Counted from the first letter of the stretch, positions 2,567 to 60,375 are shown. The stretch is 64,000 bases of DNA from an uncultured bacterium (GCA_966243015.1 CBIMES010000001.1:298076-362075); one strand, 5' to 3'. Translations and numbers: made by a program. The notes: generated by a model from the letters alone, not told the origin.

Positions 2567-3103
2567 TTAGACCCGCGGCCCGACGGGATCCTTTATTAGC
2601 TCCGTCTCAGTAAAGATTGCGCCGCTCTTCATGCGGAACCTCTCTTCGGTAAAGGTCTTCCCTGTCTCCCGAAAGCCCAGCTTCTTGTAAAAGGCAATCG
2701 CCCTGGCGTTATAGTTCACCACGTGGACAATCGTCGGCTTGAGTGGGTCAAGATTTTCCCTCGCCGCCTCCCAGAGCGCCTTGGCCACACCCCTCCCCTG
2801 AAATTCCGGCAAGACGTACATGGCCTGAAGCTGATTGTGCTCGGGCCGGACGAAGACCCGACACAGGCCGACAGCCCTTCCGTCGATCTCCGCGACGAAA
2901 TACCAGCCGCCCTTTGAGCGAGTGTCGGCAATGCTCTTCTGAGACCTCTCGATGCTCGCGGGAGACTTCCTCTCGCCGAAATGCGCCTCGATGTCCTCGA
3001 GGGTTATGCCGTGCTCGGCGTTCGGGTACGTGGCGACCCAGGTGATATAGAAGATGTCGCTGAGCTGGGATGCATCTTCGGGTCGCGCTTCTCGGATGTT
3101 CAT
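2567..3103 (-). CDS. GNAT family N-acetyltransferase
   Basis: 178-aa protein with a GNAT core pattern (..VAEIDGRAVGLCRV..; QGRGVAKAL acetyl-CoA binding motif). Confidence 0.8.
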   Translation of the reverse strand: MNIREARPEDASQLSDIFYITWVATYPNAEHGITLEDIEAHFGERKSPASIERSQKSIADTRSKGGWYFVAEIDGRAVGLCRVFVRPEHNQLQAMYVLPEFQGRGVAKALWEAARENLDPLKPTIVHVVNYNARAIAFYKKLGFRETGKTFTEERFRMKSGAIFTETELIKDPVGPRV

Positions 3104-3112
3104 AGTTTTGAA

Positions 3113-4918
3113 TTATTTATAGTCCTCGGCCTGAAGCGCGAAGAGTCGGGCGTAGGTTCCCTTTCGGGCAATGAGCTCATCGTGCGATCCCAACTCTTCG
3201 ACGGCGCCGTCTTTGAACACGCAGATTCTGTCCGCCTTACGCACGGTTGAGAACTTGTGCGAGATGAGCACGACGGTCTGGCCGCCCGTGAGGGATTCTA
3301 TCTTCTCGAAGATGCGCATCTCGGCCTCTGCGTCGATTGCGGCAGTTGGCTCATCGAGAATCATGAGGCCCGCCTTGCGGTGGAAGAGTCGCGCAATGGC
3401 AAGGCGCTGCTTTTGGCCTTTTGACGGGTCAATACCGCCGTCGAACTCGACGCCGAGCATCTGGTCGTACTTGTCCTTCCATTCCAATATAAAGCTCTCG
3501 GAGTCGCTCGACTGCGCGGCCTCGACGACGCGCTCGAGGCTCATCGGTTCGCCTGATCTCCCGAGGGAAATCGCCTCTTTTACCGGGAAATTGTACGAGG
3601 CGTATTCCTGGAAGAGGACGCCGAGGTTCCTGTACCACTCGTCGAGGTCGATCTCCCTCAGATCAACCCCGTCCACGAGAATGCGGCCCTCGGTCGGGTC
3701 ATAGACGCGACAGAGCAATTTCACGAACGTCGTCTTGCCCGCGCCGTTCTCACCCACCAGGGCGAACTTCTCGCCAGGATTGAGGGTCAGGGATATGTTC
3801 CTGAGAATCATCTTTCCAGAGCCGGGATACGCGAAAGAGACGTTCTCGAAGGTGATGGTCGGGGTCTTGTTCTTGTTGATCGCGACAGGGTGCGCCGAGC
3901 GATACAGAGTATTCTCCGTATCCAAAATCTGGAAGAGGTTGTCCGCGTAGGTGCTGCGGTCCTGCTGATGCGAGAGCTGGTTCAGGAAGCCTATGAGCGC
4001 AGACTGGAAGCGATCCATGGACGAGAGCAGGAAGAGCATGGTTCCGACCTCAATCAGGCCAATGGATACGCGATAGACGATGAAGATGACGGTTCCGCCG
4101 ACAATCGCGCCCAAGATGAGTGTCGAGCCCGCCTCGAAGGCGAGCTTTTTCTTCTCGACGACCTTCTGCCTGTCGCCGAAAGTTCCCAGTATACGTGAAA
4201 TATGAGCAAAGAAGTGCCCCACGTTCTGGAAGAGCTTGAGCTCCACGAGCCACGTTCGACTGTTGAAGTACGATCTGATATCCTCGTAGCGTCTGCGCAC
4301 GGCCGTATCCGCGTCCCAGATGCCCCAGGCCTCCTTGCCGTACTTTATTTGGGTGATGAATCGCGGAATCACGGCAAGGGCAACCAAGAGGCATACGACC
4401 CAGTTGAAGCTCGCGAGGATGACCATGGCCGTAACGACCTGGGTAAGATCCCTCAGGATGTTGAACTGGATCTCCGACATGTTCACGATCGGCCACACGT
4501 CCCGATCCTCGGCCTTGTTTATCAAGTCCTGGAAGGCTGGGTTCTCGAACTGTTGAATGTCCATCGACGCCTTCTTCTTGAGATAGAGGAGCTGGAACGC
4601 CTTACCCAGGTCGATGTAGTTTCGCTTCTCGAAGTACTCTCGCAGGCTCGACACGATGTCGGGCAGGAAGAGCGTCAGGGCAAATGCTCCGGCGAGCAGA
4701 AGAATCAGGCGCGGCGCATAGTCGCCCGCCACGAGCGAATTCACGAGCGCGGCAGAGATGCCCGACTGCGCAAAGGGGAAAAGCGCCAGGAGAATCGACG
4801 TTGTGACCATGCCGATGACGACAGGCTTGTCATGCTCCCAGGCGAACAGGGCGACCCTCCAGCTCGTCACGAGAACCTTCTTGAAGGAGGCGTATTTTGA
4901 GGTGGTTGTGGTGCTCAT
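3113..4918 (-). CDS. ABC transporter, fused permease/ATP-binding protein (type I exporter)
   Basis: 601 aa with an N-terminal 6-TM domain. Walker A GENGAGKTT, ABC signature LSKGQKQRLAIAR, Walker B LMILDEPTAAID. Confidence 0.85.
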   Translation of the reverse strand: MSTTTTSKYASFKKVLVTSWRVALFAWEHDKPVVIGMVTTSILLALFPFAQSGISAALVNSLVAGDYAPRLILLLAGAFALTLFLPDIVSSLREYFEKRNYIDLGKAFQLLYLKKKASMDIQQFENPAFQDLINKAEDRDVWPIVNMSEIQFNILRDLTQVVTAMVILASFNWVVCLLVALAVIPRFITQIKYGKEAWGIWDADTAVRRRYEDIRSYFNSRTWLVELKLFQNVGHFFAHISRILGTFGDRQKVVEKKKLAFEAGSTLILGAIVGGTVIFIVYRVSIGLIEVGTMLFLLSSMDRFQSALIGFLNQLSHQQDRSTYADNLFQILDTENTLYRSAHPVAINKNKTPTITFENVSFAYPGSGKMILRNISLTLNPGEKFALVGENGAGKTTFVKLLCRVYDPTEGRILVDGVDLREIDLDEWYRNLGVLFQEYASYNFPVKEAISLGRSGEPMSLERVVEAAQSSDSESFILEWKDKYDQMLGVEFDGGIDPSKGQKQRLAIARLFHRKAGLMILDEPTAAIDAEAEMRIFEKIESLTGGQTVVLISHKFSTVRKADRICVFKDGAVEELGSHDELIARKGTYARLFALQAEDYK

Positions 4919-5010: not shown

Positions 5011-6015
5011 ATGAAAAAGAAGCGCCCCAATCCCCTCCTCCCGAAAATGCTCCGTAAAATCGCCCCGCGCATCGGTGCGAAGGTTACGATCGAGCCTGAA
5101 TGGGGCGTCGTGGGCCAGATAACCTTCAAGAGTGGGAAGAAAAGCTATTTCAGATACTCGACCCTCGACCTCAACCCCGTCGGCTCGTCAGATATCGCCA
5201 AGGACAAGGACTATGCCAACTTCTTCATGAAAAAGCTCGGGTACCCTACCGTTCCCGGCAAGGCGTTCTATTCGCCCGACTGGGCACGGGCAATCGGCTC
5301 ACACCAGTCCACGAAGCCCGCGGCGACATACGCACAGAAACTCGGCTTCCCCGTCATCATCAAACCGAACAGTGGCAGCCAGGGGTCAGGAGTGCGCCTG
5401 GTACACAACAAGAAGGAATTCTTCTCGGGACTCCGTGACATATTCAGGAAAGACCGCGTCGCCCTCGTGCAGACGCCCGTTCGAGGCAAGGACTATCGCA
5501 TCGTGGTACTCGATGACAAAGTGATATCAGCATACGAGCGCGTGCCGCTGAGCGTCATGGGCGACGACAGGACAACGATCCTCGGCCTCCTCAAGAGGAA
5601 ACAGGCATCGTTCGTCGCATCGAGCAGGGACACCGTACTTAACATACGCGACAGGCGCATCGCCGCGAAGCTCAAGCGGGCCGGACTAACCGTGAAATCA
5701 ATTCCGGCCAAGGGCGAGCAGATCTTCCTGCTCGACAACGCGAACCTCTCTACGGGTGGCGACTCAATCGACGTCACGAAAGTGATTCACCCCGAATTCA
5801 GGGACATCGCCGTGCGCCTGACCAGAGACATGGGCCTACGTATCTGCGGCGTCGATCTCATGGTATCGGGCGATATCTCGGAAAAGCCCGTCACGTACTG
5901 GGTGCTCGAAATAAACGCGGCACCAGGCCTCGACCATTACGCAAAATCAGGAAAGGCCCAAGAGAAGATCGTAGAGGAGTTGTACCTGGAGGTTTTGAGG
6001 AGTTTGAATAAATAA
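5011..6015 (+). CDS. Stand-alone ATP-grasp ligase related to the cyanophycin synthetase (CphA) ATP-grasp domain
   Basis: KDYRIVVLDDKVISAYERVP, DNANLSTGGDSIDVTKVIHPEF and LEINAAPG closely parallel the CphA ATP-grasp motifs KGNDYRVLVV, RATANLSTGGTAIDRTDDIHPEN and EVNAAPG. There is no Mur-ligase domain. Confidence 0.75.
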   Translation: MKKKRPNPLLPKMLRKIAPRIGAKVTIEPEWGVVGQITFKSGKKSYFRYSTLDLNPVGSSDIAKDKDYANFFMKKLGYPTVPGKAFYSPDWARAIGSHQSTKPAATYAQKLGFPVIIKPNSGSQGSGVRLVHNKKEFFSGLRDIFRKDRVALVQTPVRGKDYRIVVLDDKVISAYERVPLSVMGDDRTTILGLLKRKQASFVASSRDTVLNIRDRRIAAKLKRAGLTVKSIPAKGEQIFLLDNANLSTGGDSIDVTKVIHPEFRDIAVRLTRDMGLRICGVDLMVSGDISEKPVTYWVLEINAAPGLDHYAKSGKAQEKIVEELYLEVLRSLNK

Positions 6016-6146
6016 GAACACGACCTTGGAAGAGATGAGGACCTTGATTCGGCCCATAAAAGCTAGCGTGGAACCACCTTCGAGCGAAACACTTCCCCGG
6101 CTCTAAACGGTTATACTACGACGCACAGAAGTCCGAGCTGACAAAA

Positions 6147-6171
6147 AATCGGCCCAACTAGTGGGCCGATT
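6147..6171 (-). terminator. Terminator hairpin (aatcggcccaactagtgggccgatt) flanked by an A-run and TTT; bidirectional candidate
   Basis: 8-9 bp GC stem. The a6 run before it gives a U-tract on minus, immediately after the small minus ORF that ends at 6182. Confidence 0.4.
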
Positions 6172-6181
6172 TGAAACGAGC

Positions 6182-6385
6182 TTAAGAGCGAGCAATCAAG
6201 ACACAAGCCACAAAAACAAGAATCGCTAATGCATCAATCAGGACGAGGAAGCGAATAAGCCTCTTCCCCTCCGAAGATTGATAAAAGGCAATCTTGTCTT
6301 CCGCATATTTCTTGAATCCGCCCGGATAATTTTGAGCAACGACGAGCTCAAGCCGCATCGTTGCAAGAGCCATATTGGTTATCAT
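6182..6385 (-). CDS. Small tail-anchored membrane protein (67 aa), hypothetical
   Basis: ORF with a C-terminal TM helix (LIRFLVLIDALAILVFVACVLIA) and a terminator directly downstream. Lies in the transition zone to the low-GC island. Confidence 0.35.
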   Translation of the reverse strand: MITNMALATMRLELVVAQNYPGGFKKYAEDKIAFYQSSEGKRLIRFLVLIDALAILVFVACVLIARS

Positions 6386-6546
6386 GGTACAAAGAATTTA
6401 GCATCAAAATAACACTTAAAGTAAATAACGGCAACTCTTTGACATAATTATGAAAAATACGTAAGGTTATGCAGAATCAGTTCTTTCACATCGTAGGATA
6501 GGTATCCATACAATCAGGAAGAGCAACAAAACCCAATCCGTCCCCA

Positions 6547-7677
6547 GTGACGCCAATAACCATGAATCAGGAAATTATGTCATCGGAGCGGCTGAAAGCC
6601 TCTCTTGCTATTCCGGACCTAACGGATCCACGGAATGGAATTCACGCGATAAACATTATTATAGAAAAAATCGTGACTGCCATGAAAAAAGGCAATCCCG
6701 ATTCCTCTATTGAAGAAATCCGGGGGGATCCGAGAGTGTCGATCAAGGATAATTTCGACGACCTCTTGTTTCCAAAAGACAACGCGGGCCGATCCTCCCG
6801 ATACACTCGATACGTATCTGAAGACACTGTCCTCAGAACCCACATGTCATCCGCAGCGCCCTCATGGCTCAGAAAAAGATCAGCAGACCGAGCCCAAGAC
6901 ACAATCGCCATTTTTCCAGGGATGTGCTACCGCCGCGATGTTGTCGACAGGACGCATTGCGGAGAACCTCATCAAATGGATATATGGCGTATCAAAAGAG
7001 GAGGTCGGCGCTGTGACAGAAAGGCGTTGATAAAGACAATAGAAACAGTCCTTGGCGCCGTCGTTCCTCAGTTCCAATATCGAGCCAACGAAGTCAGACA
7101 CCCTTACACGATTAACGGCCTCGAGGTCGAGATTCTTGTAAATGATACGTGGCTTGAAATTCTAGAGTGCGGTGAAATACACCCAACCGTGCTCATGAAC
7201 GCAGGTCTTGATCCTGATGAATATTCAGGGCTCGCTCTGGGAATGGGTCTCGACAGACTGGTGATGGCCCTTAAGAGAATCGACGATATCAGAATCCTCA
7301 GGTCTCAAAACCCGAGAATTAAGAAACAGCTGATGAACCTTGAGCCATTTGTCGTCACGTCAAATCAACCAGCCGCAAAACGGGTTATCTCCTATTCAAC
7401 CTCTGTTAAAGAAACAGAGGAAGATACATGCGAGAAAATTCGAGACGGCCTTGGAAAAGATGCCGTCTTCCTGGAGCAGATAGAATACGCGGAAACCCCC
7501 TACGAGGAACTGCCGGAGAAAGCCCGCCTTAACCTCGGCATCAAGCCCGACCAAAAGAACGTGGTGGCCACGATCACGTTTCGATCAATAGACGGTTCCC
7601 TGGCCCGCCCCATGGTAAACAATTGGATAGAGACGCTCTACCCAAAACTCAACCAAGGCAGCAAAGGCTACATCTAA
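6547..7677 (+). CDS. Monomeric phenylalanyl-tRNA synthetase-like class II aaRS (PheS-type catalytic core plus C-terminal FDX-ACB-like domain, mitochondrial-type architecture)
   Basis: FDDLLFPKDN...VLRTHMSS...FPGMCYRRD...HQMD...WLEILECGEIHPTVLMNAGLDPDEYSGLALGMGLDRLVMAL matches the PheRS-alpha motif 2/3 region (RTHTS, PGRVYR.D, WLEVLGCGMVHPNVL..GIDPEVYSGFAFGMGMERL). The C-terminal ~100 aa (..NVVATITFRSIDGS..) resembles the ferredoxin-fold anticodon-binding domain. Low-GC gene. Confidence 0.7.
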   Translation: MTPITMNQEIMSSERLKASLAIPDLTDPRNGIHAINIIIEKIVTAMKKGNPDSSIEEIRGDPRVSIKDNFDDLLFPKDNAGRSSRYTRYVSEDTVLRTHMSSAAPSWLRKRSADRAQDTIAIFPGMCYRRDVVDRTHCGEPHQMDIWRIKRGGRRCDRKALIKTIETVLGAVVPQFQYRANEVRHPYTINGLEVEILVNDTWLEILECGEIHPTVLMNAGLDPDEYSGLALGMGLDRLVMALKRIDDIRILRSQNPRIKKQLMNLEPFVVTSNQPAAKRVISYSTSVKETEEDTCEKIRDGLGKDAVFLEQIEYAETPYEELPEKARLNLGIKPDQKNVVATITFRSIDGSLARPMVNNWIETLYPKLNQGSKGYI

Positions 7678-7691
7678 AACCCCTGGCAGCA

Positions 7692-7729
7692 AAGGGTCGC
7701 ACAGAATTATTCTGAGCGACCCTTTTTTA
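7692..7729 (+). terminator. Rho-independent terminator for the PheRS-like gene
   Basis: aagggtcgc...gcgaccctt stem followed by ttttttat. Confidence 0.55.
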
Positions 7730-7738
7730 TCATATGAA

Positions 7739-7761
7739 AGCCCCTCACTTTCATGAGGGGC
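7739..7761 (-). terminator. Terminator hairpin for the convergent minus-strand operon (after the LysRS-like gene)
   Basis: gcccctca cttt catgaggggc; the minus-strand reading continues with tttcatatgataaaaaa. Confidence 0.45.
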
Positions 7762-7780
7762 CGATTGATTTGCGAAAAAC

Positions 7781-9226
7781 TTAAAAAACAGGAAAAAGTT
7801 CCACGTCCCTAATATCTCTCGCATTGAGAAGAAGCATGAGAAGTCGCTCAATCCCCATGCCGATACCTCGGCACGGCGGCAGTCCAAATTCCATGGCACG
7901 AATTATGCTTTCGTTAACATGTCCTTGTTCTGCCTTTCCGTATTTAGCCTGTTCCTCCATGCTGCGACGGATAATAACAGGGTCACGCTCCGGATTCACG
8001 ATGTCAGCAACGAGCATGCCGTTGATGACAAGCAGAGTCTCGTCAACGGTTGAGCCGTCGCCGTTCCCCTTGAAAAGGGGCGACTGAGCCGCGGGCAGCC
8101 CCCTCAAGAACGTGGGGGTCGTGATGCCCGACACGATGTGAGCATACAAAGAAGTCGATACGGTATACCTGTTTACCTTAGCGGGACGAGGTATACCGAT
8201 TGCATCAAGCAAGACAGCCAGCTCTTCGACCGGACGAGATTCGTCATATCGAAAACCTGTCAACCTTTCAATCTCCTCAGCATAATCGCACACAGTCCAA
8301 CTACCAGAACAGTCAATCACCCCATCCGCCACAGGCAAACTTGCCGAACCATACAGCTCACGAAGGATTTCACACAGCAGATCCTTTATAAGCCCCTCCA
8401 TCTCTTCCCGGCTCGCATATGCGCGATACAGTTCAAGAATAGTGAAGTGCGGCAAGGTGCTCGATGTCGCCCCTTGGTTTCTAAACGATTTTCCAATTTC
8501 AAAGACCCTTGATAAACCACCCACCATGAGCTTGCGGAGAAGAATCTCAGACGTAAGCCTGAGATACATGTCCCCGGTTTGATCAACGGAACGAGTGACA
8601 AACGGATCCGCAAGACCTGCCTCAAAACTATTTTGAAGTAGGCCCATATTGAGCTCCTCGTAACCACGAGCGTAGAGAAACTGTCTAAGCACCCTAAATA
8701 TCGTGGAGCACCTGCGAAAGTGCAGAACCATTTTCGGGTCCCGAATAAGCTGAAGATATCTATATTCGCTTACATTTGATTTCTTTCGAAAATCAATGTT
8801 TGAATCGTAAACATCACCCGTCGCCTTTGAAAGCAGACTTATTCGGTTGGCGAAAAAGATCGAGGTTCCAAGATATTTTTTCTTAACCCCGCACAACGCA
8901 ACCACATCTCCGTAATGAATCAGCGAATTAACAACATCGATATTGTCTTGATTTCGCACAAGGAAAGCGGCAACCGAGCAGCCGTTCCCCTCAAGCCTCT
9001 CCAAAACGATAGCATCAACACCATCAACCGCCTCAAACACACCCAGTCGTGATTTTTTTGTAAGCGGGTCAGAAAGCATAATTCTCCCCACTATAGTTAT
9101 TTCGCTTTCAAAAGGCGCCCGCTCAAAGTCGGAGGCCTCGATACAACCCATTGGCGCATCTTTTTGATACACAAACGGGTCCTTTTCTAAGGCACGAAGC
9201 CTCTTTCCATTGCTATTTTTAGCCAC
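7781..9226 (-). CDS. Lysyl-tRNA synthetase-like class II aaRS (divergent; last gene of the island operon)
   Basis: YLRLTSEILLRKLMVGGLSRVFEIGKSFRNQG (LysRS motif 2, compare [34 protein letters not shown]) and C-terminal GIGMGIERLLMLLLNARDIRDVELFP (motif 3). AAGGAG SD 6 nt upstream and a TTGACA -35-like hexamer. Low GC. Confidence 0.85.
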   Translation of the reverse strand: MAKNSNGKRLRALEKDPFVYQKDAPMGCIEASDFERAPFESEITIVGRIMLSDPLTKKSRLGVFEAVDGVDAIVLERLEGNGCSVAAFLVRNQDNIDVVNSLIHYGDVVALCGVKKKYLGTSIFFANRISLLSKATGDVYDSNIDFRKKSNVSEYRYLQLIRDPKMVLHFRRCSTIFRVLRQFLYARGYEELNMGLLQNSFEAGLADPFVTRSVDQTGDMYLRLTSEILLRKLMVGGLSRVFEIGKSFRNQGATSSTLPHFTILELYRAYASREEMEGLIKDLLCEILRELYGSASLPVADGVIDCSGSWTVCDYAEEIERLTGFRYDESRPVEELAVLLDAIGIPRPAKVNRYTVSTSLYAHIVSGITTPTFLRGLPAAQSPLFKGNGDGSTVDETLLVINGMLVADIVNPERDPVIIRRSMEEQAKYGKAEQGHVNESIIRAMEFGLPPCRGIGMGIERLLMLLLNARDIRDVELFPVF

Positions 9227-9299
9227 AATGACTCCTTTTCTTGTTTTTTATGTTAATGAACTAAGGTTTCCGTAACATTGATACAAAACAATAAAAGTG

Positions 9300-9842
9300 T
9301 CAATTACCCTTCTTGAAGATATCGTACTTAAAATCCTTGTGTGTCATTGACGGCCGAGGACCAATGCTGTTCTGATACTTCCCCTTGTAGAGAGAGATCT
9401 CGCCAAAAGGAACCCAGAAGCTTACCTGCGCGATAGACATTCCTGGATAGATACGAACAGGAAGGGTTGCGTAGAGTTGAAAGGTCGTAACCCCATGAGA
9501 TCCTATATCAATCAAATCAGCGGTAACGTGAACAAAGAGACCCATCCTAGCCGTGCCGGACTTTCCGTGTATCAACGGAACATAAAAATCGCTACCGATA
9601 CGCTCCCTGGAGTGCCCCAGAACAAAGTCACCTGCCTTAAGAACCAACCCATCTTCAGGTATTCGTATCTCTTCGTAAACTGCCTCGTGCTTAGGATCAA
9701 TGACACCCGGTCCATATCGGATGACAGTGTCGCCAAGCGACAAATCATAAGAATTGGTCGTGACCGACTCTTCATTAAACGGAACTATCTCTATCTTGTC
9801 ACCCCGAACTTCCTCGAGGATTTTTTTACCCGTAAGTATCAT
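9300..9842 (-). CDS. dCTP deaminase/dUTPase-family protein, paralog 2 (Gln at the position aligning with the catalytic Glu)
   Basis: GKSGTARMGLFVHVTADLIDIG...PGMSIAQVSF aligns with Dcd GRSSLARLGLMVHVTA...PGMLIGALSF. It has ..TTFQLY.. where the upstream paralog has ..TLEIV... The start ATG overlaps the upstream stop (ATGA). Confidence 0.8.
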   Translation of the reverse strand: MILTGKKILEEVRGDKIEIVPFNEESVTTNSYDLSLGDTVIRYGPGVIDPKHEAVYEEIRIPEDGLVLKAGDFVLGHSRERIGSDFYVPLIHGKSGTARMGLFVHVTADLIDIGSHGVTTFQLYATLPVRIYPGMSIAQVSFWVPFGEISLYKGKYQNSIGPRPSMTHKDFKYDIFKKGN

Positions 9843-10357
9843 GGGGCTTTTTGTTTAGCGGTTGGTACATATGACTCCTGGGGATGATTCAGACGACCGT
9901 ACACTCCCACGTAAGAATCAATAGGCCCGAAGTTTTTCCAGAATGAAACTTGGCCAATCACCATTCCAGGATAGACCCTTATTGGCAAGGCGGCCACAAT
10001 CTCAAGGGTCCACCTATGCATTGAGGTGGTGTGGCCAAGATTTGCAGAGACCTGCAAAAACAAGCCGTATCTGCCCATCGAGCTTCTACCAATAAGAGAC
10101 ATGGCGTATTCCGAGCTCCCGATAATCTCTTGAGTGTTCGCGAGATACATCCGGCCCGGCTCTAGTACATACCCCTCTTGGGGAATGGACAACTCTTTAA
10201 AGACGGACTTGCCACCATCGAAGAAAACAAACTCTTTCAAAGTGGGACCCAGGCGGTAATTGTAGCTATTGGGATTAATTTGTTCAGGCAAAAACGGCTC
10301 AATGACTATCCTTTTGCCAGCAATCTCTTCTTTTATTTTTGCCCCAGTCAGAATCAT
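9839..10357 (-). CDS. dcd: dCTP deaminase-family protein, paralog 1
   Basis: MILTGAKIKEEI..., GRSSMGRYGLFLQVSA, WTLEIV (catalytic Glu context), PGMVIGQVSF. Confidence 0.8.
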   Translation of the reverse strand: MILTGAKIKEEIAGKRIVIEPFLPEQINPNSYNYRLGPTLKEFVFFDGGKSVFKELSIPQEGYVLEPGRMYLANTQEIIGSSEYAMSLIGRSSMGRYGLFLQVSANLGHTTSMHRWTLEIVAALPIRVYPGMVIGQVSFWKNFGPIDSYVGVYGRLNHPQESYVPTAKQKAP

Positions 10358-10360
10358 AAC

Positions 10361-11182
10361 TTAGAATAGTTCCACGAAACGATTCGGATAGATGTCTTTC
10401 CTATACCTTAAGACAAGCGTACTGTATCTCTGATAAGGCCTCAATTCATTGGACATCTTTTTGATATCGTAGAGCCGGTTATAAATCGCCTTACGGACCC
10501 CGGCATCATGGATGCCGAGCATAATGCAAGCTCTGTCCGTCGTGCACTTACAATAATAATCGAGCTCTTCCTTTGTTTCTGGAATAAGATCGTTTCGATC
10601 CTCGAATATGATCTCAAGCTTATTGTAGAGTTTCATAATTTCCTTGTAGGACACGGACGTCGGCGTAATCCCAAAAACCTTTCTAGCTTTTTTAATTAAG
10701 GTGGCCGGGATTGTCTTGGTTACGTAGAAAGGTGAGGCGAGTATATAACCACCGTCATCAAGCATACCAATACACTTTTCAAGCATCTTTGATGGATCAG
10801 GGAAAAAGCCGAGCGAGGCTCCCACGACGATATGACTGAAAGGCTCATTCGTCGAAAATTCATACCCATTCGCAACTCTGTATGAAAATTTTACACCAGG
10901 AGCGTATTGATCCTTATTGTAATTTGCCATTTTTACAGAATTTTCCGACAGATCGAAACCCTCCCCGCTGCAACCAGACATAATAGCAAGTTCCCGAGAG
11001 GAAAAACCCGTTGTACACGCAACCTCAAGAAGTCGTGAGGTTTTTTTCAACCCCGAAAACTGAGCCCACTTAGAAAGTGTGACGTATGATCCCGGCAAAA
11101 CATTCCACTGATTAATCAATCCGACAAAATCAGTGTAGGAGAGATTTTTTACATAGTCTGAGGTAATCGTGTTATTTTTCAT
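10361..11182 (-). CDS. Class I SAM-dependent methyltransferase
   Basis: Motif I LEVACTTGF and an acidic motif II. 273 aa. AGGAA upstream. Confidence 0.8.
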   Translation of the reverse strand: MKNNTITSDYVKNLSYTDFVGLINQWNVLPGSYVTLSKWAQFSGLKKTSRLLEVACTTGFSSRELAIMSGCSGEGFDLSENSVKMANYNKDQYAPGVKFSYRVANGYEFSTNEPFSHIVVGASLGFFPDPSKMLEKCIGMLDDGGYILASPFYVTKTIPATLIKKARKVFGITPTSVSYKEIMKLYNKLEIIFEDRNDLIPETKEELDYYCKCTTDRACIMLGIHDAGVRKAIYNRLYDIKKMSNELRPYQRYSTLVLRYRKDIYPNRFVELF

Positions 11183-11194
11183 GTTTCCTTTACC

Positions 11195-12400
11195 CTAAAA
11201 TTCGTATACAGGCGGTATTGAGCTTATAAAATTCTGCGCCAAAGAATAAGTTAAGGCACCTTGATTCGGCACCACAATAACATCCCCCTCCCTCAGTCGA
11301 TCAGCATAGCAGAGATAGCCCCAAATATCCCAAGTGGTACAAAGGTTGCCCCACACGCGACAGCTAATCTCACTTTTTGCCGGCATCGATATATTTACCA
11401 ACGGAAAATACTCGTGCTCGAAGCGCTGCCAACCAACCATGTTAACGCCTGCGTCCAGGATAATATTTGACTCATCCTTTTTATCAGCAACGCGAGCGAC
11501 TATAAGCATAGAGTTGTTGCATATAAAACGACCAGGTTCCGCACGATATTGGGCGTCGATTAAGGGCTCAAGATCCTTCTTTATTGCATCGCCTATCTTT
11601 TGAGCGTACTCAGCGATCTCCAGACTTTCCCTAACTCGATAAGAACCCTCAACGCCCTTTACATCGCCAGAAGAATAATAACCCTCCGATCGAGAAACCT
11701 CGAATCCGCCACCAAAATCAACGTACTTGATAGAACGAAGGTCCTCGACACTAAAATTCAGCTTAATAAAAAGCCCTATTTTTGAAATAGCGTCCTCATA
11801 AGAGGATGCATCCTTGTTTCTTGAGGTGTGAAAATGAATGCCTTCAAGCTCAATAAACGGATGTCGTTTTGCCGCATCCCAAAACTCGCCAAGCCTCTCA
11901 AGGGGGATGCCGTATTTTTTCCAATCGCCGAAAAGATCCACGTGAACCCTAACTCCCGCCTTTATCTTTAAACCCGAGGCCGACGTCAATGATCCAAGCG
12001 TCTCCAGTTCACTAAAACTATCCATGTTAACAGTCACCATATCAGAATACTTGAGTGCATGCGCAAGATCCGCTCTTGTCTTGCCTGGACTGAAATACAT
12101 AATATCCTTACAGCCCGCCGCAACAGCGAGGTCTATTTCTCGGACACTACCGACATCGAGACCCATACCCCGCTCAACAACACGAGCAATCACTTTGGGA
12201 TGATGATTGAGTTTAAGCGCATAATAAGCCCTAAAAGAGGCAACCTCCTTGTTGAAAGCATCTAAAAAAGAGCTTATGGAAGCATCGAGGGCCTTCATAT
12301 CAAGAGCATAGAAAGGCGTTCCGTGCTTCTCAACAAGCTCAAGCAACGAATCTCGCTTCTCGAGCACATCTTCTACGATATGATACAGTCCGGTACTCAT
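11195..12400 (-). CDS. Fold-III PLP-dependent decarboxylase (Orn/DAP/Arg decarboxylase family; LysA-like or MccE-N-like)
   Basis: YALKLN (PLP-lysine motif), DFGGGF, EPGR. The start overlaps the upstream stop by ATGA. Confidence 0.85.
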   Translation of the reverse strand: MSTGLYHIVEDVLEKRDSLLELVEKHGTPFYALDMKALDASISSFLDAFNKEVASFRAYYALKLNHHPKVIARVVERGMGLDVGSVREIDLAVAAGCKDIMYFSPGKTRADLAHALKYSDMVTVNMDSFSELETLGSLTSASGLKIKAGVRVHVDLFGDWKKYGIPLERLGEFWDAAKRHPFIELEGIHFHTSRNKDASSYEDAISKIGLFIKLNFSVEDLRSIKYVDFGGGFEVSRSEGYYSSGDVKGVEGSYRVRESLEIAEYAQKIGDAIKKDLEPLIDAQYRAEPGRFICNNSMLIVARVADKKDESNIILDAGVNMVGWQRFEHEYFPLVNISMPAKSEISCRVWGNLCTTWDIWGYLCYADRLREGDVIVVPNQGALTYSLAQNFISSIPPVYEF

Positions 12401-13416
12401 ATAACGGATTTCTCAAATACGATCGACGCCTCTTCGGTATCGATAGCGACCGTGCCGCCGTTCGGTATGGTAATAAGCGGATCCGAGTGTCCAAAATCAG
12501 CGTTGTACATAACAGGAAAAGTGGAAGAGCCGAGATTCTCCCCGAGAATCTCTTCGAACGAGTCGTCTCGAGAGAAGCCAGACTGTTCCGTAAACCTACC
12601 GAAGACAAGACCCGATATGGCCTCAAACCACCCCAGCTGCTTACACTGGCAAAGGAATCTATCGACGTGGGCAGGGGTGCTTGTCTCGTCCTCTTCCAGA
12701 AAAAGAATCTTACCTTTCAAATCGGGCATATATTCCGTCCCCTGAAGCAGAAGCAGGGTTTGAAGATTTCCAACGAGAACCTCTCCCGCTGCGCTTCCGG
12801 CCCTGAAGACCTTAACGCCCTCATTGGCCTTTTTAATCCTGTGGTCATTGTCTTCCCTGAGAAAGTATAAATCGTCAGCGTATTCCCCCGATGACTCAAT
12901 GGCAACCCTCTCTTTTGGAGAGACGCACATTTCTTCAAAGTACTTCCAGGTGTACCCAAAAGGCTCAGGCTTGGCGAAAGATATGACTCCGGGACCAGAG
13001 AAAGTAACGAGCCCGGTCTTGGTTGTGATAGCGGTAGTGAGGGCAGTTACATCAGAATAGCCGATAAATACCTTCGGATGCTTGCTAATTAGACCATAAT
13101 CAAGGCGATCGAGAATCTGATTGGTATTGAAACCTCCCCAGAAAGCCATAATGCATCCCACGTCTTCCCTTTCGAGGAACCTGTGTATGTCCTGAACCCG
13201 AAGATCAACAGACCCTGCAACATGCTTGTTGGTAAGGTTTTTAACAGACTCACCCTCAGCGATAACGAAACCTCTTTCTTCGAGATACTTGTAACCTCGC
13301 TGAATAGTCTCTTCTGGGCAGACGCCCGCAACCGGATCAGCAGGTGCAATAATTCCAATGGTCATGCCCTTTTTGAGCCTTGGCGGGAGTACTTTTCCTG
13401 ATTGATTTGACGACAT
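12397..13416 (-). CDS. S66 family LD-carboxypeptidase (LdcA/MccF-like serine peptidase)
   Basis: IGIIAPADPV N-terminus, nucleophile context FIGYSDVTAL, length 339 aa. First gene of the operon. Confidence 0.85.
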   Translation of the reverse strand: MSSNQSGKVLPPRLKKGMTIGIIAPADPVAGVCPEETIQRGYKYLEERGFVIAEGESVKNLTNKHVAGSVDLRVQDIHRFLEREDVGCIMAFWGGFNTNQILDRLDYGLISKHPKVFIGYSDVTALTTAITTKTGLVTFSGPGVISFAKPEPFGYTWKYFEEMCVSPKERVAIESSGEYADDLYFLREDNDHRIKKANEGVKVFRAGSAAGEVLVGNLQTLLLLQGTEYMPDLKGKILFLEEDETSTPAHVDRFLCQCKQLGWFEAISGLVFGRFTEQSGFSRDDSFEEILGENLGSSTFPVMYNADFGHSDPLITIPNGGTVAIDTEEASIVFEKSVI

Positions 13417-13794
13417 GAATTAAGGATAACCATAATTAACCAAAACCACAATAATAGCCGTCTCGAAACAAAAAAAACGGAACGATGTCCCGTCTCGCAA
13501 GCTCAATCTTGACCCATTTCCCCGTAGTCATGCCCGATCCCGTGCTAGAAAGAGCTCACGGTTCGATCATCATTGCCCAAACAGGTGTAGTCCACAGTCC
13601 CAGAAAGAGAATCAACTCCCCGCTTTTGATACCGCCCGCAGGCAATGATTACGAGAAGGAAGGCAATTTCAGCGGGTGCGATAATGCACAATAAATACAT
13701 TGTACTCATCGGTTGAAGGTGCGTTTTGTTTTCAAAAAGAATAACAAATAGACGTTCAAGAAGTTATAAAGATCTAATAAAAAAACTCTTGGCC

Positions 13795-15456
13795 CTATTT
13801 AACCTCCGGCACCTCCACAATGAAGGCGCTTCCCTTGCCCTCTCCCTCTGACTCGGCCCAGAGCCTGCCGCCGTGCGCGGTGACGACCTCCTTGGCGATG
13901 AAGAGACCGAGGCCGGTTCCGTGGATGTTGGCCTCGCTCGCGTTCTTGGCGCGCGAGAATTTGCGGAAGAGCTTTGGCATGACCTCAGGCGCGATACCCA
14001 CCCCGGTGTCCACGACCTTGAAGCGGATCATGTGACGAGCGGTGTCCTTCTCGAGAGAGATTGATATCGAGCCCTTGAGCGTGTACTTAACCGAATTGTC
14101 GACGACATTCATGAGAACCTGCTTGAACTTGTCGAGGTCGGCCTTGATTGGATACGGCTGCGCCTGATCGATCGAGACGTTGAACGCGAGGCCCTTCGCC
14201 TCAATGTTTGGCTTCTGCTCGGCGACGACCTCAGCAACGAGGCCCTTGAGATCTATCTCCTTGAGGTCGTACCGCATGGTTCCGAGCTCTATGCGGGTTA
14301 TGTTGAGATAATCCTCAACAACGCTTGAGAGCGTGTTGACCGACGTAAGTATGGTCTGCACAATCTTCCTCATGCCATCGGAGACGGGCCCCGCATCGCC
14401 TTCGAGAATAATTGAGGTGTATCCCCTTATAGACGTAAGAGGGCTCCTGATTTGATGCGTGGCAAAGGAAAGGAACTCTGTTTTCTGTGTATCGAGCTCC
14501 TTGAGGCGGGCGTTTGCCTTTTCAAGCTGATCTTTTTGCGCCTCAATAAGCTGCCTCGCCTCGACTTCTTTTTTCACGCTTCTAACAAGAATTGTTCCGA
14601 GAATCGCGGTAAGAATGAGCGTAAGTACCGTTACGATACGGATATTCTCTATCCTCCTTATGAAAAGAATTGCGAATATGAGGAACAGAAGGGTTCCCAC
14701 GAGTACCTGTGCACTGAACAGCCTGACATCAAAAGCTTTAAACCTAACAATCATGTACGAGAGGAAAGCGATAAAAAGCGCCATGCCGAGGGGCCCGACG
14801 AGATTGAACTCGTAGATGAGAGTCGCGTCGCCAACGACATTCGTAGTCACAAAGGTTCCCAGGAGAATGAGGGTCCCCAGTATAAGCGAGAGTACTTTTT
14901 TCTTCTCTGGTGATGATTCGGACTTTCTGCGCTTCGAAACGCAGAGGAGAATCGCAAAGAGGGCCAACACCACCTGCAGGATATACACATAGACCCAAAG
15001 AGGACCGTTGTAGCTCTGGCACTCCACCAGGTCAAAATAGGTCATGTTCAGAGTCGTTGGCAAAAGCACCAGGATCGGCAGGAGCGAGACGAAGCCGAGA
15101 AGCCTTAGGGAGAACGGAGGGATCCTGTCGTGAAGGAAGACGTAGACAAAGTGGACAACAGACAGGACGAGGCCAACCTGGAGCAGGGCGGAAACTTGCC
15201 AGCCAAAATGAACAAACCACGCGTCGACGGCAACCCACTGCAGAAGCTCGTTAATAATCCAAAGCGAGAACGAGGCAGCGATGGCGAGAAGTGACCTTGT
15301 CTGCAACGACCTGTTCTTAATAAAGAGGAATATGGAGAAGAAAAGAGAGAGAAATACTATCGGTATGTAGGAATAGTAGAGAAGCGTCGGGGCAATCGAT
15401 GTATCGATGATGCCGAAAAGGTTGGGGGCAGCGTCTAGACACAGAAACGGGTCCAT
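13795..15456 (-). CDS. Membrane sensor histidine kinase (multi-TM sensor + HisKA + HATPase_c), orphan
   Basis: About eight N-terminal TM helices. H-box FLSFATHQIRSPLTSI, N box, G boxes (VVDTGVGI, GTGLGLFIAKE). No response regulator adjacent. Confidence 0.85.
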   Translation of the reverse strand: MDPFLCLDAAPNLFGIIDTSIAPTLLYYSYIPIVFLSLFFSIFLFIKNRSLQTRSLLAIAASFSLWIINELLQWVAVDAWFVHFGWQVSALLQVGLVLSVVHFVYVFLHDRIPPFSLRLLGFVSLLPILVLLPTTLNMTYFDLVECQSYNGPLWVYVYILQVVLALFAILLCVSKRRKSESSPEKKKVLSLILGTLILLGTFVTTNVVGDATLIYEFNLVGPLGMALFIAFLSYMIVRFKAFDVRLFSAQVLVGTLLFLIFAILFIRRIENIRIVTVLTLILTAILGTILVRSVKKEVEARQLIEAQKDQLEKANARLKELDTQKTEFLSFATHQIRSPLTSIRGYTSIILEGDAGPVSDGMRKIVQTILTSVNTLSSVVEDYLNITRIELGTMRYDLKEIDLKGLVAEVVAEQKPNIEAKGLAFNVSIDQAQPYPIKADLDKFKQVLMNVVDNSVKYTLKGSISISLEKDTARHMIRFKVVDTGVGIAPEVMPKLFRKFSRAKNASEANIHGTGLGLFIAKEVVTAHGGRLWAESEGEGKGSAFIVEVPEVK

Positions 15457-15458
15457 GA

Positions 15459-15490
15459 GCTACAGTATATTAAGATACCCGACAAGGAGC
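15459..15490 (-). promoter_or_regulatory. Candidate sigma70-type promoter for the histidine kinase (TTGCTC-17-TATACT on the minus strand), leaderless or near-leaderless
   Basis: On the minus-strand reading: TTGCTCcttgtcgggtatcttaaTATACTgtagctcATG. Confidence 0.25.
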
Positions 15491-15508
15491 AAGGCATCTG
15501 AATAAAAA

Positions 15509-15536
15509 AGCCGCGTGCCCTAGGGGTACGCGGCTT
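15509..15536 (-). terminator. Terminator hairpin for the DMT transporter gene
   Basis: agccgcgt gcccctagggg t acgcggct, preceded by aataaaaa on plus (T-run on minus). Confidence 0.45.
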
Positions 15537-15543
15537 GAACTAA

Positions 15544-16455
15544 TTACGTGGTTATACTGAGAATCGAACCTCCGACGACCACAAGGACGATGCCCGCCAG
15601 CTTCTTCCAGAAGGCAGACCCCTGATCTTCCGAGATCAGATGGGGTAGGAACTTCGTGAGAAGCGCCGCACCCACAAGAACGAAGAGGGGCTGACTGCAG
15701 GCGAGGCCCTGGACTATCGCCACGGGAGCGAAGAGCTTTGCCCGGTCGAACAAGAAATCCGCGACGATCGCGAGGACTTCCGACAGCGACTGGAGGCCAA
15801 GCTTTGTCCGAAGGCCGATGACGAAACCCTGACGGGTCTTCGGTCCGGCGAGGAGGACGAGCCCCCAGAACGCCTTTCCGCCGACATCAAAGGCAATCGC
15901 CGGGACGGTGTCGAGCTCGCGACCAAACTTTGCGAACACGACGTCGTTGACGGCCAGGAGAAGCGAGGCAACGAGCATTAGGACGATCGCCTGACCCTTC
16001 GCCCTGCCGCTCGACTTGAGCACCCAGCCACCGACAGCCAGAACCACAATCGCCGCCACGTGATACCACTCCAGACTTTCGCCGATGAAGGCGAATGCCA
16101 GAATGATGCCAAATGCCGGTATGGTCTGAAACCAAGGATCGACTCGGGATGCCTCGTCGATGCTCAACGCCTTAAGGAACAGAATCATGGCGACGACATA
16201 CGTGACGCCGTTCGCCATGAGAGGGAGCGCGACTGACAGCTCCACTAACTGACCCTTGAAGAGCATAAGCGGACCGAGGATCACGATGCCGAAGACGAGG
16301 TTGAAGAATCCAGAGATCGCCATAAGCGCCGCCGGCTTCGAGTCCTCGCCATCGCCCTTAACCAGTATCTTGTCTGTGAGAATCGCCGCTGCCCAGAGCA
16401 TCGGCGGGATGAGATTCAGGAAGAATTCCACATGGACCTTTCTGTTTCTTCGCAT
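15544..16455 (-). CDS. DMT superfamily (EamA-like) transporter
   Basis: 303 aa, about 10 TM segments, two-repeat EamA-like topology. Confidence 0.7.
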   Translation of the reverse strand: MRRNRKVHVEFFLNLIPPMLWAAAILTDKILVKGDGEDSKPAALMAISGFFNLVFGIVILGPLMLFKGQLVELSVALPLMANGVTYVVAMILFLKALSIDEASRVDPWFQTIPAFGIILAFAFIGESLEWYHVAAIVVLAVGGWVLKSSGRAKGQAIVLMLVASLLLAVNDVVFAKFGRELDTVPAIAFDVGGKAFWGLVLLAGPKTRQGFVIGLRTKLGLQSLSEVLAIVADFLFDRAKLFAPVAIVQGLACSQPLFVLVGAALLTKFLPHLISEDQGSAFWKKLAGIVLVVVGGSILSITT

Positions 16456-41161: not shown

Positions 41162-41204
41162 ATACTATCGCAAAACGGTTTTTTTTCAAAAAGCCCCAAA
41201 GAAA

Positions 41205-59514: not shown

Positions 59515-59517
59515 GTG

Positions 59518-59590
59518 TGGACCATACCGGAATCGAACCGGTCGCCTCATCCATGCCATGGATGCGCTCTACCAAATGAGCTAATGGCCC
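59518..59590 (-). tRNA. tRNA-Ala (anticodon GGC)
   Basis: Manual fold gives a 7-bp acceptor stem with G3:U70, anticodon loop auGGCau and T-loop ttcgatt. CCA is not encoded. Confidence 0.8.
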
Positions 59591-60294: not shown

Positions 60295-60302
60295 ATCTTG
60301 GG

Positions 60303-60375
60303 TGGACCTGACAGGATTTGAACCTGCGACCTTCGCTTTGCAAAAGCGCTGCTCTACCAACTGAGCTACAGGCCC
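60303..60375 (-). tRNA. tRNA-Ala (anticodon UGC)
   Basis: gggcctgtagctcagttggtagagc... with anticodon loop ttTGCaa, G3:U70 and T-loop ttcaaat. Confidence 0.8.

Follow-up and report, generated by a model that had tools for sequence, protein, structure and literature searches.

The 64 000-nucleotide stretch of DNA analyzed here (GCA_966243015.1 CBIMES010000001.1:298076-362075, from an uncultured bacterium; the whole stretch is referred to below as the window) contains a low-GC island with seven genes, six on the minus strand and one convergent with them. With moderate confidence, we interpret these genes as a horizontally acquired biosynthesis-plus-immunity cassette for an aminopropylated aminoacyl-pyrimidine-nucleotide, that is, a fake aminoacyl-adenylate resembling microcin C. 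The interpretation rests on homologues of the microcin C proteins MccD and MccF, on two paralogs of aminoacyl-tRNA synthetases (aaRSs) with altered active sites, on a complementary pair of dCTP-deaminase (DCD) paralogs and on the recurrence of the gene set, with exchange of its synthetase partner, in related loci.

Family assignment and gene organization

All seven proteins lie within the superfamilies given in an earlier note on this DNA (Pfam and NCBIfam), which had listed an S66 LD-carboxypeptidase, a fold-III pyridoxal phosphate (PLP) decarboxylase, an S-adenosylmethionine (SAM) methyltransferase, two dCTP-deaminase paralogs, a protein like lysyl-tRNA synthetase (LysRS) and one like monomeric phenylalanyl-tRNA synthetase (PheRS). 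The homologies to MccD and MccF, the membership of the PheRS-like protein in the SrmL family and the degenerate active sites had escaped it. Its view that the locus is no housekeeping arrangement gains support, since none of the LysRS-like, DCD, LysA-like and LdcA-like proteins reaches the NCBIfam housekeeping cut-off and, among the families tested, the only cut-off attained is that of SrmL (Table 1). The scores support the conclusion that none of the seven island genes is a housekeeping gene.

The order and spacing of the genes agree with the earlier description, and both of the ATGA junctions that it named are found in the coordinates as 4 nt start/stop overlaps (12397–12400 and 9839–9842). 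The Shine–Dalgarno sequence AAGGAG that it assigned to the LysRS-like gene is present at 9232–9237, 5 nt upstream of the GTG start, and two hairpins lie where it had placed back-to-back terminators between the PheRS-like gene and the operon. The PheRS-like gene is convergent, as described, but it is part of the module and not a mere neighbour at the edge.

An Rfam scan of the island (E ≤ 1) returned one chance-level match in a coding region and no T-box or riboswitch, and neither the leader nor the intergenic regions contain an MccA-like or other small open reading frame (ORF) that is conserved between loci. Two small ORFs on the minus strand in non-coding stretches of the island, one of 67 residues with a hydrophobic C-terminus (6167–6370) and one of 54 residues that is hydrophobic (13545–13709), were considered as precursor peptides and rejected, as neither has a counterpart in any related locus.

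Table 1. Features of the island, with positions in the window, the basis of each assignment and NCBIfam scores
Feature	Position	Strand	Basis	Profile, score in bits (cut-off)
Compositional island with the whole cassette	6016–13794		GC contrast; edges at flanking stop codons	
SrmL, ‘PheS-related mystery ligase’, 371 residues (alternative GTG start 6547)	6562–7677	+	NF051887 score	NF051887, 388.9 (300)
Two hairpins between the convergent genes, probable terminators	7691–7725 (then T run) and 7740–7761		17 nt arms, 94% complementary	
LysRS-derived paralog, KRS-like, 481 residues, GTG start	7781–9226	−	NCBIfam score, family gap, AF2 model, residues	LysRS (two profiles), 241 (468) and 213 (428)
DCD2, dCTP-deaminase/dUTPase fold, 180 residues	9300–9842	−	NCBIfam score	Dcd (TIGR02274), 87.5 (92.8)
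DCD1, dCTP-deaminase paralog, 172 residues	9839–10357	−	NCBIfam score; 4 nt overlap with DCD2	Dcd (TIGR02274), 63 (92.8)
MccD homologue, SAM-dependent 3-amino-3-carboxypropyl transferase family, 273 residues	10361–11182	−	PDB search, alignment	
Fold-III PLP decarboxylase, 401 residues	11195–12400	−	Pfam PF02784 and PF00278	LysA, 157 (298)
S66 serine peptidase, MccF clade, 339 residues, first operon gene	12397–13416	−	PDB matches; 4 nt overlap with decarboxylase gene	LdcA, 118 (378)
Leader/promoter region of the operon, 378 nt	13417–13794	−	No conserved small ORF or known RNA element	

MccD homologue, decarboxylase and S66 peptidase

In microcin C biosynthesis, MccD attaches to the phosphoramidate a carboxy-aminopropyl group taken from SAM, which the N-terminal domain of MccE decarboxylates, and MccF shields the producer by cutting the aminoacyl-nucleotide amide; peptidases of the MccF clade are also known as stand-alone resistance genes (PMC8323819). 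The island protein with a methyltransferase fold has MccD (PDB entry 5fcd) as its top PDB match (E = 3.6e-24; next match 4e-4), and a full-length alignment shows 26% identity to E. coli MccD (E = 2e-29). Both proteins contain the N-terminal motif N(L/M)xYxDFVxL and an unusual motif I, AC(T/S)TGFSSRE. Judged by these matches, the protein is an MccD homologue and not an ordinary methyltransferase.

The S66 peptidase finds the MccF-like proteins Lmo1638 and BA_5613 in the PDB with E values of ∼1e-63 to 1e-61 and E. coli MccF with ∼1e-43 to 1e-48, compared with 1e-28 to 1e-13 for LdcA. It aligns with E. coli MccF over the full length (32% identity), including the Ser/His/Glu triad. These comparisons place it in the MccF (microcin C immunity) clade, and we propose that it is a self-immunity hydrolase. 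The decarboxylase gene sits between the MccD-like and MccF-like genes and its product shows a weak link to the MccE N-domain (22% identity over 189 residues); we propose that it is the partner of the MccD-like enzyme and converts carboxy-aminopropyl to aminopropyl. Taken together, the MccD-like and MccF-like homologies point to an N-acyl phosphoramidate nucleotide as the substrate that the two enzymes would have in common.

LysRS-derived paralog

The LysRS-like protein belongs to a family of ∼75 sequences, all of ∼482 residues and 42–65% identical to one another. Beyond this family the search reaches true LysRSs at ∼30% identity, with a fall in score from 370 to 182 bits. The AlphaFold2 (AF2) model (pLDDT 81) retains the N-terminal OB fold and is matched best by LysRS structures. 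In an alignment with true LysRSs, for which we use what we take to be the residue numbering of E. coli LysU, the equivalents of the lysine-pocket residues Glu240, Glu278 and Tyr280 are kept, as are those of the motif 2 arginine that contacts the α-phosphate (Arg262) and of the stacking phenylalanine (Phe274). Glu264 is replaced by Gln in every member (RNE to RNQ), His270 and Asn271 are lost, both of the Mg-ligand glutamates (Glu414 and Glu421) are replaced by Leu and the motif 3 arginine is replaced by His in three of 12 members. The score below the family cut-off, the RNQ motif and the leucines at the Mg-ligand positions set the protein apart from canonical LysS, and both it and SrmL have an aaRS fold with a tRNA-binding domain and an amino-acid pocket.

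This pattern looks like that of a transferase rather than a synthetase, and we propose that the protein is a Lys-specific aminoacyl transferase acting on a nucleotide analogue. The kept and lost residues would fit the second aaRS half-reaction run backwards, with the aminoacyl group passing from tRNA to an analogue of a nucleoside monophosphate; such a transfer needs no Mg–pyrophosphate chemistry, so loss of the Mg-binding residues would be expected. Enzymes of this type are known. In the ascamycin pathway, Ala-tRNA is the donor from which AcmF, a truncated AlaRS-like protein without the residues for ATP binding and alanine activation, acylates a nucleoside at its sulfamoyl NH2; the IleRS-like SbzA, which is likewise reported to lack key residues for ATP binding and amino-acid activation, performs the same type of aminoacyl-tRNA-dependent transfer in SB-203208 biosynthesis (PMC12945691). 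In the ascamycin cluster, AcmD is a resistant extra AlaRS and AcmE is a hydrolase that takes the alanine off (PMC12945691).

SrmL

The alignment of the PheRS-like protein to the 349-position profile NF051887 covers positions 2–349, and its scores against two PheS profiles, 107 bits (cut-off 237) and 118 bits (cut-off 258), are below both cut-offs. The AF2 model (pLDDT 93) has full-length human mitochondrial PheRS as its best PDB match (TM-score 0.75), and the architecture is that of the monomeric mitochondrial enzyme, with a class II core followed by a C-terminal FDX-ACB-like domain; the Pfam FDX-ACB domain is found in some SrmL relatives. Three pocket changes, mapped with what is presumably the Thermus PheRS numbering, are invariant in the family: FPFTEPS becomes HPYTING, the adenine-stacking Phe becomes Pro and LGCGM becomes LECGE. 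The HPYTING pocket and the low PheS scores separate SrmL from canonical PheRS α and from mitochondrial PheRS. The literature searched contains no paper that uses the name ‘SrmL’ or ‘mystery ligase’, and NCBIfam names the family without a function.

SrmL also occurs in other company. One locus (L076, 8422–12220) combines it with an S51 peptidase, a NUDIX protein, a GNAT and a canonical PheS; another (L080, 8682–14032) combines it with an S66 peptidase, radical SAM enzymes and a carbamoyltransferase, with two adjacent GlyRS copies nearby; and in a third (L082, 8549–11113) it stands beside a lone radical SAM enzyme. MccG-type S51 peptidases (PMC9239234) and GNATs (PMC8323819) are known microcin C immunity proteins. 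The contigs of L076 and L080 also encode canonical PheS and PheT, respectively, which makes SrmL a surplus copy in both genomes.

Directly upstream of SrmL, and overlapping its start, most loci of what we term type A encode a conserved protein of 82–112 residues (L007, 7689–7958; L008, 12669–12938; also L009, L010, L014, L078 and many metagenome loci), which is absent from the window. Some type A cassettes are adjoined by a second monomeric PheRS-like paralog of 380 residues with an FDX-ACB domain and a near-canonical FPYTDPS pocket (L078, 17551–18693; L008, 3579–4721). This paralog is about equidistant from SrmL and PheS and could be a resistant PheRS.

Paired DCD paralogs

Residues of DCD1 and DCD2 were mapped onto M. 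tuberculosis DCD-DUT. DCD1 keeps the deaminase Glu, Ser and Arg, and the Asp of ‘IDPGF’ is replaced by His; DCD2 keeps the dUTPase-type Asp (‘IDIGS’), which acts as the general base in dUTPases, and its deaminase Glu is replaced by Gln. This complementary degeneration is invariant in all orthologs. No single polypeptide of the pair has the full catalytic set of Dcd or DCD-DUT, and both score below the cut-off. Conservation within the cassette is highest for DCD2 (mean column identity 84%), in which one 38-residue stretch is invariant over 12 loci except for a single position (Thr or Ser). The aromatic residue after ‘DPG’, which excludes ribose in the DCD/dUTPase superfamily, is missing in both proteins, so ribonucleotides may be accepted. 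By elimination, we assign to the pair the supply of the nucleotide scaffold, and a conservative reading has the two specialized paralogs convert (d)CTP to (d)UTP and then to (d)UMP.

DCD1–DCD2 pairs also occur without an aaRS paralog in three loci (L130, 142–6648; L146, 5830–11624; L145, 5270–11174). In the first two they are found beside genes of the EPSP-synthase family and for a protein of β-lactamase fold, a Metallophos phosphoesterase and GT4/GT28 glycosyltransferases, to which L130 adds an NTP transferase; L145 has Metallophos, GT4/GT28 glycosyltransferase and PIG-L deacetylase genes. The UMP enolpyruvyl transferases known from polyoxin and nikkomycin belong to the EPSP-synthase family, and these three loci look like a different nucleoside-type cluster.

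Related loci and exchange of the synthetase partner

The LysRS-like family is present in nine reference metagenome-assembled genomes (MAGs), six of which are labelled Patescibacteria (two Saccharibacteria, one Andersenbacteria, one Uhrbacteria and two ‘Patescibacteria group’). The other three are labelled Thermotogota (L007), Hyphomicrobium (L010) and Gammaproteobacteria (L014); their cassettes are 54–65% identical to the Patescibacteria ones, and the labels probably reflect misbinned contigs rather than true hosts. The window derives from a metagenome assembly (ENA ERZ27393942), and it is solely from the company that the cassette keeps in related loci that we infer a Patescibacteria host for it. 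In six of the nine MAGs all seven genes are present in the order of the window, with 50–80% amino-acid identity, while the flanks otherwise share nothing; the gene order described in the earlier note thus recurs in six MAGs and also on metagenome contigs, and the cassette is widespread among Patescibacteria.

A metagenome scan with the DCD2 alignment added 80 loci. A chassis of S66 peptidase, decarboxylase, MccD-like protein, DCD1 and DCD2 is common to ∼100 related loci, and its partner is either the LysRS-like protein with SrmL or an AlaRS-like protein. Linkage is tightest around the DCD pair: in 67 of 70 metagenome loci the two paralogs are immediate neighbours, with DCD1 on the upstream side, and in 45 of 58 the gene immediately upstream of DCD1 is the MccD-like one. 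An aaRS paralog is present in 50 of the 56 informative loci; it is LysRS-like in 12 (11 of them with SrmL) and a divergent, truncated AlaRS-like protein in 38. In three of the remaining six, a class IIb synthetase is encoded close to the DCD pair (L133, L137 and L148), and in L137 and L148 it is clearly a paralog; the last three are L130, L146 and L145. The similarity of the chassis to that of the window is independent of the partner (80% versus 79% for DCD2 and 70% versus 69% for the S66 peptidase), which indicates that the synthetase paralog has been exchanged on a constant chassis. Such an exchange of LysRS-like for AlaRS-like suggests a change of building block.

Other loci vary the chassis itself, in ways that would fit the same biosynthetic logic. 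In type B (L011 and L083) the S66 peptidase, the LysRS-like protein and SrmL are kept, the decarboxylase is replaced by an AdoMet decarboxylase with a second kind of MccD-like protein, and the DCD pair is replaced by a NodU/TobZ-type carbamoyltransferase, a CN hydrolase and an AsnA-like core. Here the carbamoyltransferase could take over from the DCD pair by installing an O-carbamoyl NH2 as a different linker, and type B thereby lends indirect support to the phosphoramidate reading of the DCD pair given below. Some microcin C-like clusters also contain a carbamoyltransferase homologue (PMC8323819). One locus (L148, 79–11353) contains an ATP-grasp protein, an unassigned 740-residue protein, an MccD-like protein, DCD1, an IS110 fragment, DCD2, the class IIb aaRS paralog, an ABC exporter and a genuine LysRS; judged by its gene content, it has the layout of a classic aaRS-inhibitor cluster with a resistant copy of the target. 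An MFS transporter is encoded in L137.

Two further candidates did not hold. The D232E change of AcmF was tried as a universal mark of the AlaRS-like proteins, for which what we take to be the E. coli AlaRS sequence served as a guide, and it is present only in the C85 type and in part of the C84 type. The TrpRS genes found close to type C loci look canonical, with HIGH and KMSKS intact, and were not counted as part of the system.

Composition, edges and mobility of the island

The GC content is 46.4% across 6016–13794 (7.8 kb) and 56.9% in the remainder of the window. At 1 kb resolution the 64 kb profile contains a single clear trough at 6–14 kb (44–49% compared with ∼55–60%), which at 300 nt resolution extends from 6016 to ∼13 800. 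In 212 other windows of 7.8 kb the GC content ranges from 54.3 to 58.9% (standard deviation 1.0), which places the island more than ten standard deviations below. The GC content at third codon positions (GC3) is 45–53% in the seven island genes and 68–79% in flanking genes. Both edges coincide with stop codons of flanking genes, that of an ATP-grasp gene (6015) on the left and that of a histidine-kinase gene (13795) on the right. The low-GC island of the earlier note is therefore real once GC and GC3 are computed, and its left edge at 6016 is exact; its right edge at 14450 has to be moved to the histidine-kinase stop codon, and the backbone value of 60–65% comes down to ∼57%. A further dip at 14.4–14.9 kb is the membrane part of the histidine kinase.

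Horizontal acquisition, also proposed in that note, is supported by the deviant composition, the patchy recurrence of the cassette, its unrelated flanks and the insertion sequence (IS) elements that adjoin it in some other loci, though not in the window. As the note had stated, the window shows no integrase or tRNA at the island, and flanking direct repeats were likewise not found. A scan of viral contigs gave no relatives of the cassette, and a PADLOC scan for anti-phage defence matched nothing apart from a generic methyltransferase.

To the left of the island are a cyanophycin-synthetase-like ATP-grasp ligase (5011–6015, plus strand), a 601-residue ABC ATPase for which only ATPase domains (ABC_tran and AAA_21) are reported (3113–4918, minus strand) and a 178-residue GNAT with a faint Acetyltransf_3 signal of the RimL/MccE-CTD kind (2567–3103, minus strand). 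These three genes have backbone GC content and are not kept beside the cassette in other loci; they are probably unrelated to it, although GNATs and ATP-grasp ligases reappear in variant clusters. In another metagenome, a type C cassette (L085, 1140–4929) lies downstream of EamA transporter and histidine-kinase genes, an arrangement comparable to 13795–16455 of the window, but the identity of the corresponding proteins is merely 24–34%; the cassette there has a GC content of 33–36% and its flanks 45–50%. Elsewhere in the window, the AlaRS-like query matches a probable housekeeping alaS (39902–41173, minus strand; 24% identity), and two tRNA-Ala genes (anticodons GGC and TGC) lie ∼0.7 kb apart on the minus strand (59517–59590 and 60301–60375).

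Proposed pathway

In the scheme that we propose, DCD1 and DCD2 would turn (d)CTP into the nucleotide scaffold, with DCD1 only deaminating and DCD2 only attacking the α-phosphate. The minimal product of this step would be (d)UMP; the product that would best fit the rest of the cassette is a nucleoside 5′-phosphoramidate formed with the ammonia released by DCD1. The LysRS-derived paralog would hold this scaffold in its former ATP pocket and transfer lysine to it, with Lys-tRNA as the probable donor by analogy with AcmF and SbzA, and SrmL would do likewise with an aromatic amino acid or would serve as a back-up synthetase. The MccD homologue and the PLP decarboxylase would then add the aminopropyl group as in microcin C, and the MccF-clade peptidase would protect the producer by cleaving the aminoacyl-nucleotide bond; for these last two steps the homology is observed, and in the aminopropylation the substrate is presumed. 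The product would mimic an aminoacyl-adenylate in a non-hydrolysable form, its synthesis would need neither a ribosomal peptide nor MccB, and its amino acid would be set by the swappable aaRS paralog (lysine in the window, with an AlaRS-derived paralog in sister loci). Its target would be an aaRS, probably LysRS, of hosts or competitors.

One component of this scheme, that DCD2 uses the ammonia released by DCD1 in place of water at the α-phosphate and so forms a pyrimidine nucleoside 5′-phosphoramidate, which the LysRS-derived enzyme would acylate before aminopropylation, we regard as rather doubtful. It would leave the phosphoramidate NH2 available for acylation and so close the pathway. If it were true, the DCD pair would be a new kind of P–N bond-forming enzyme, the cassette would be a peptide-free and MccB-free route to microcin-C-type aaRS inhibitors, and Patescibacteria would be producers of this toxin family. 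The minimal result is a dCTP-deaminase/dUTPase function that is split between two adjacent paralogs, in itself an enzymological oddity that can be tested.

Several points weigh against the proposed cassette. Its product and activity are predictions, as is every substrate assignment. No dedicated tRNA-Lys or tRNA-Phe gene lies near any of the loci, and the window's island contains no exporter gene. The LysRS-like protein has relocated acidic residues (Asp395, Glu396 and Asp408) through which it could still activate lysine with ATP. SrmL keeps both the motif 2 and the motif 3 arginine and, of the ATP-activation residues, only the stacking Phe has changed (to Pro); either of the two roles suggested for it above may apply. 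Most catalytic motifs are also kept in AlaRS-like partners of the C84 type. The function of the DCD pair could be plain (d)UMP supply, and pairs beside an EPSP-synthase-like gene would suit a supply of UMP or dUMP. The decarboxylase is nearer in sequence to LysA than to the MccE N-domain and is not an MccE ortholog, and Trp186 of MccF, which stacks on the adenine, is not kept in the island peptidase.

Alternative explanations

Paralogs of aaRSs can modify macromolecules: EpmA/GenX lysylates elongation factor P and GluQRS acts on tRNA. An island that decorates tRNA, protein or DNA with lysine, aminopropyl or a pyrimidine nucleotide, and makes no diffusible toxin, would have these enzymes as precedents, and it would be in keeping with the weak EpmA matches of the LysRS-like protein (105 bits), with the tRNA-binding-type domains kept in both aaRS paralogs and with the missing exporter. 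However, MccD and MccF, the nearest characterized relatives, act on a small aminoacyl-nucleotide, variant loci carry exporters (ABC in L148 and MFS in L137) along with other natural-product enzymes, and the distribution is patchy and island-like, with known defence systems unmatched. We judge this explanation to be unlikely.

The island might instead make nothing and confer immunity only, the S66 peptidase hydrolyzing aminoacyl-nucleotide antibiotics that hosts or neighbours produce and the LysRS-like protein and SrmL serving as drug-insensitive back-ups. The stand-alone resistance genes of the MccF clade (PMC8323819) and resistant extra synthetases such as AcmD, a known self-resistance device (PMC12945691), are models for this, SrmL with its two arginines has the complete architecture of mitochondrial PheRS, and L148 holds a genuine second LysRS. 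The explanation leaves the decarboxylase and the three tightest-linked genes, those for the MccD-like protein, DCD1 and DCD2, without a role; it needs a working synthetase from a LysRS-like protein that lacks both Mg-ligand glutamates and, in some members, the motif 3 arginine, and the LysRS-like/AlaRS-like swap on a fixed chassis resembles a change of building block. We therefore consider it quite unlikely.

A grouping of salvage and housekeeping genes in a reduced genome, with LdcA for murein recycling, LysA for conversion of diaminopimelate to lysine, Dcd for dUMP supply, LysS and PheS, could appeal to the superfamilies to which Pfam and NCBIfam assign each protein, to the salvage on which Patescibacteria rely and to the lack of any other lysS or pheS within the 64 kb window, but it is made very improbable by the scores below cut-off, the gap between the LysRS-like family and LysRS, the degenerate active-site residues, the canonical PheS or PheT that adjoins SrmL in L076 and L080, the foreign composition, the unconserved flanks and the replacement of the partner by an AlaRS-like protein elsewhere.

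Comparison with known systems

If the proposed biosynthetic cassette is correct, it would provide a function for the SrmL, LysRS-like, DCD1 and DCD2 families and a third assembly of the fake-adenylate logic of aaRS inhibition, after the microcin C and the ascamycin/SB-203208 routes. It would also be an unusual candidate for a specialized-metabolite pathway in Patescibacteria, which are ultrasmall and depend on hosts, and might serve them as a weapon against these hosts or against competitors; the swappable aaRS partner would suggest a natural programmable platform for inhibitors of chosen synthetases. Neither the cassette nor its four unnamed families are described in the literature searched, and searches on MccF with Saccharibacteria, microcin C with dCTP deaminase and Patescibacteria with aaRS-like enzymes gave nothing.

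The likeness to microcin C (mccABCDEF) lies in what would be the aminopropyl-decoration and self-immunity half of the pathway, with homologues of MccD (26%) and MccF (32%) and a fold-III PLP decarboxylase as in the MccE N-domain, though not an MccE ortholog. In place of MccA, MccB and MccC the cassette has the aaRS paralogs and the DCD pair: no MccA peptide, MccB or MccC pump was found in the window or in ∼150 related loci. A tblastn search with E. coli MccB was negative for the window and the fetched loci and positive for the E. coli control, and the Pfam results for the window contain no ThiF domain.

With ascamycin (AcmF, AcmD and AcmE) and SB-203208 (SbzA) the cassette shares an aaRS-derived protein in which the tRNA and amino-acid parts are kept and the ATP-activation residues look degenerate. 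This protein is likewise clustered with putative nucleoside-scaffold genes and a hydrolase that would remove the aminoacyl group, and the sister loci have a truncated AlaRS-like protein, as AcmF is. The ancestors differ, being a class IIb LysRS and a mitochondrial-type PheRS, and the scaffold would presumably be a phosphoramidate or phosphate and not a sulfamate. The cassette is carried by Patescibacteria instead of Streptomyces, and for it tRNA dependence is a prediction. The DCD proteins share with Dcd and DCD-DUT the fold and motifs (PF22769), including the Ser/Arg motif, and DCD2 has the C-terminal lid. They differ from them in the split of functions over adjacent paralogs (Glu only and Asp only), the missing aromatic residue after ‘DPG’, the scores below cut-off and the setting in clusters that resemble those for secondary metabolites. 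In the case of NF051887, the PheRS-like gene of the island is a member of the SrmL family, for which genomic partners are supplied here.

By these comparisons, the cassette appears to belong to a known kind, the gene clusters for aminoacyl-nucleotide mimics that inhibit aaRSs. It is new in its architecture, which joins ascamycin-type aaRS-derived enzymes to decoration and immunity of the microcin type, in its split DCD pair and in its Patescibacteria host.

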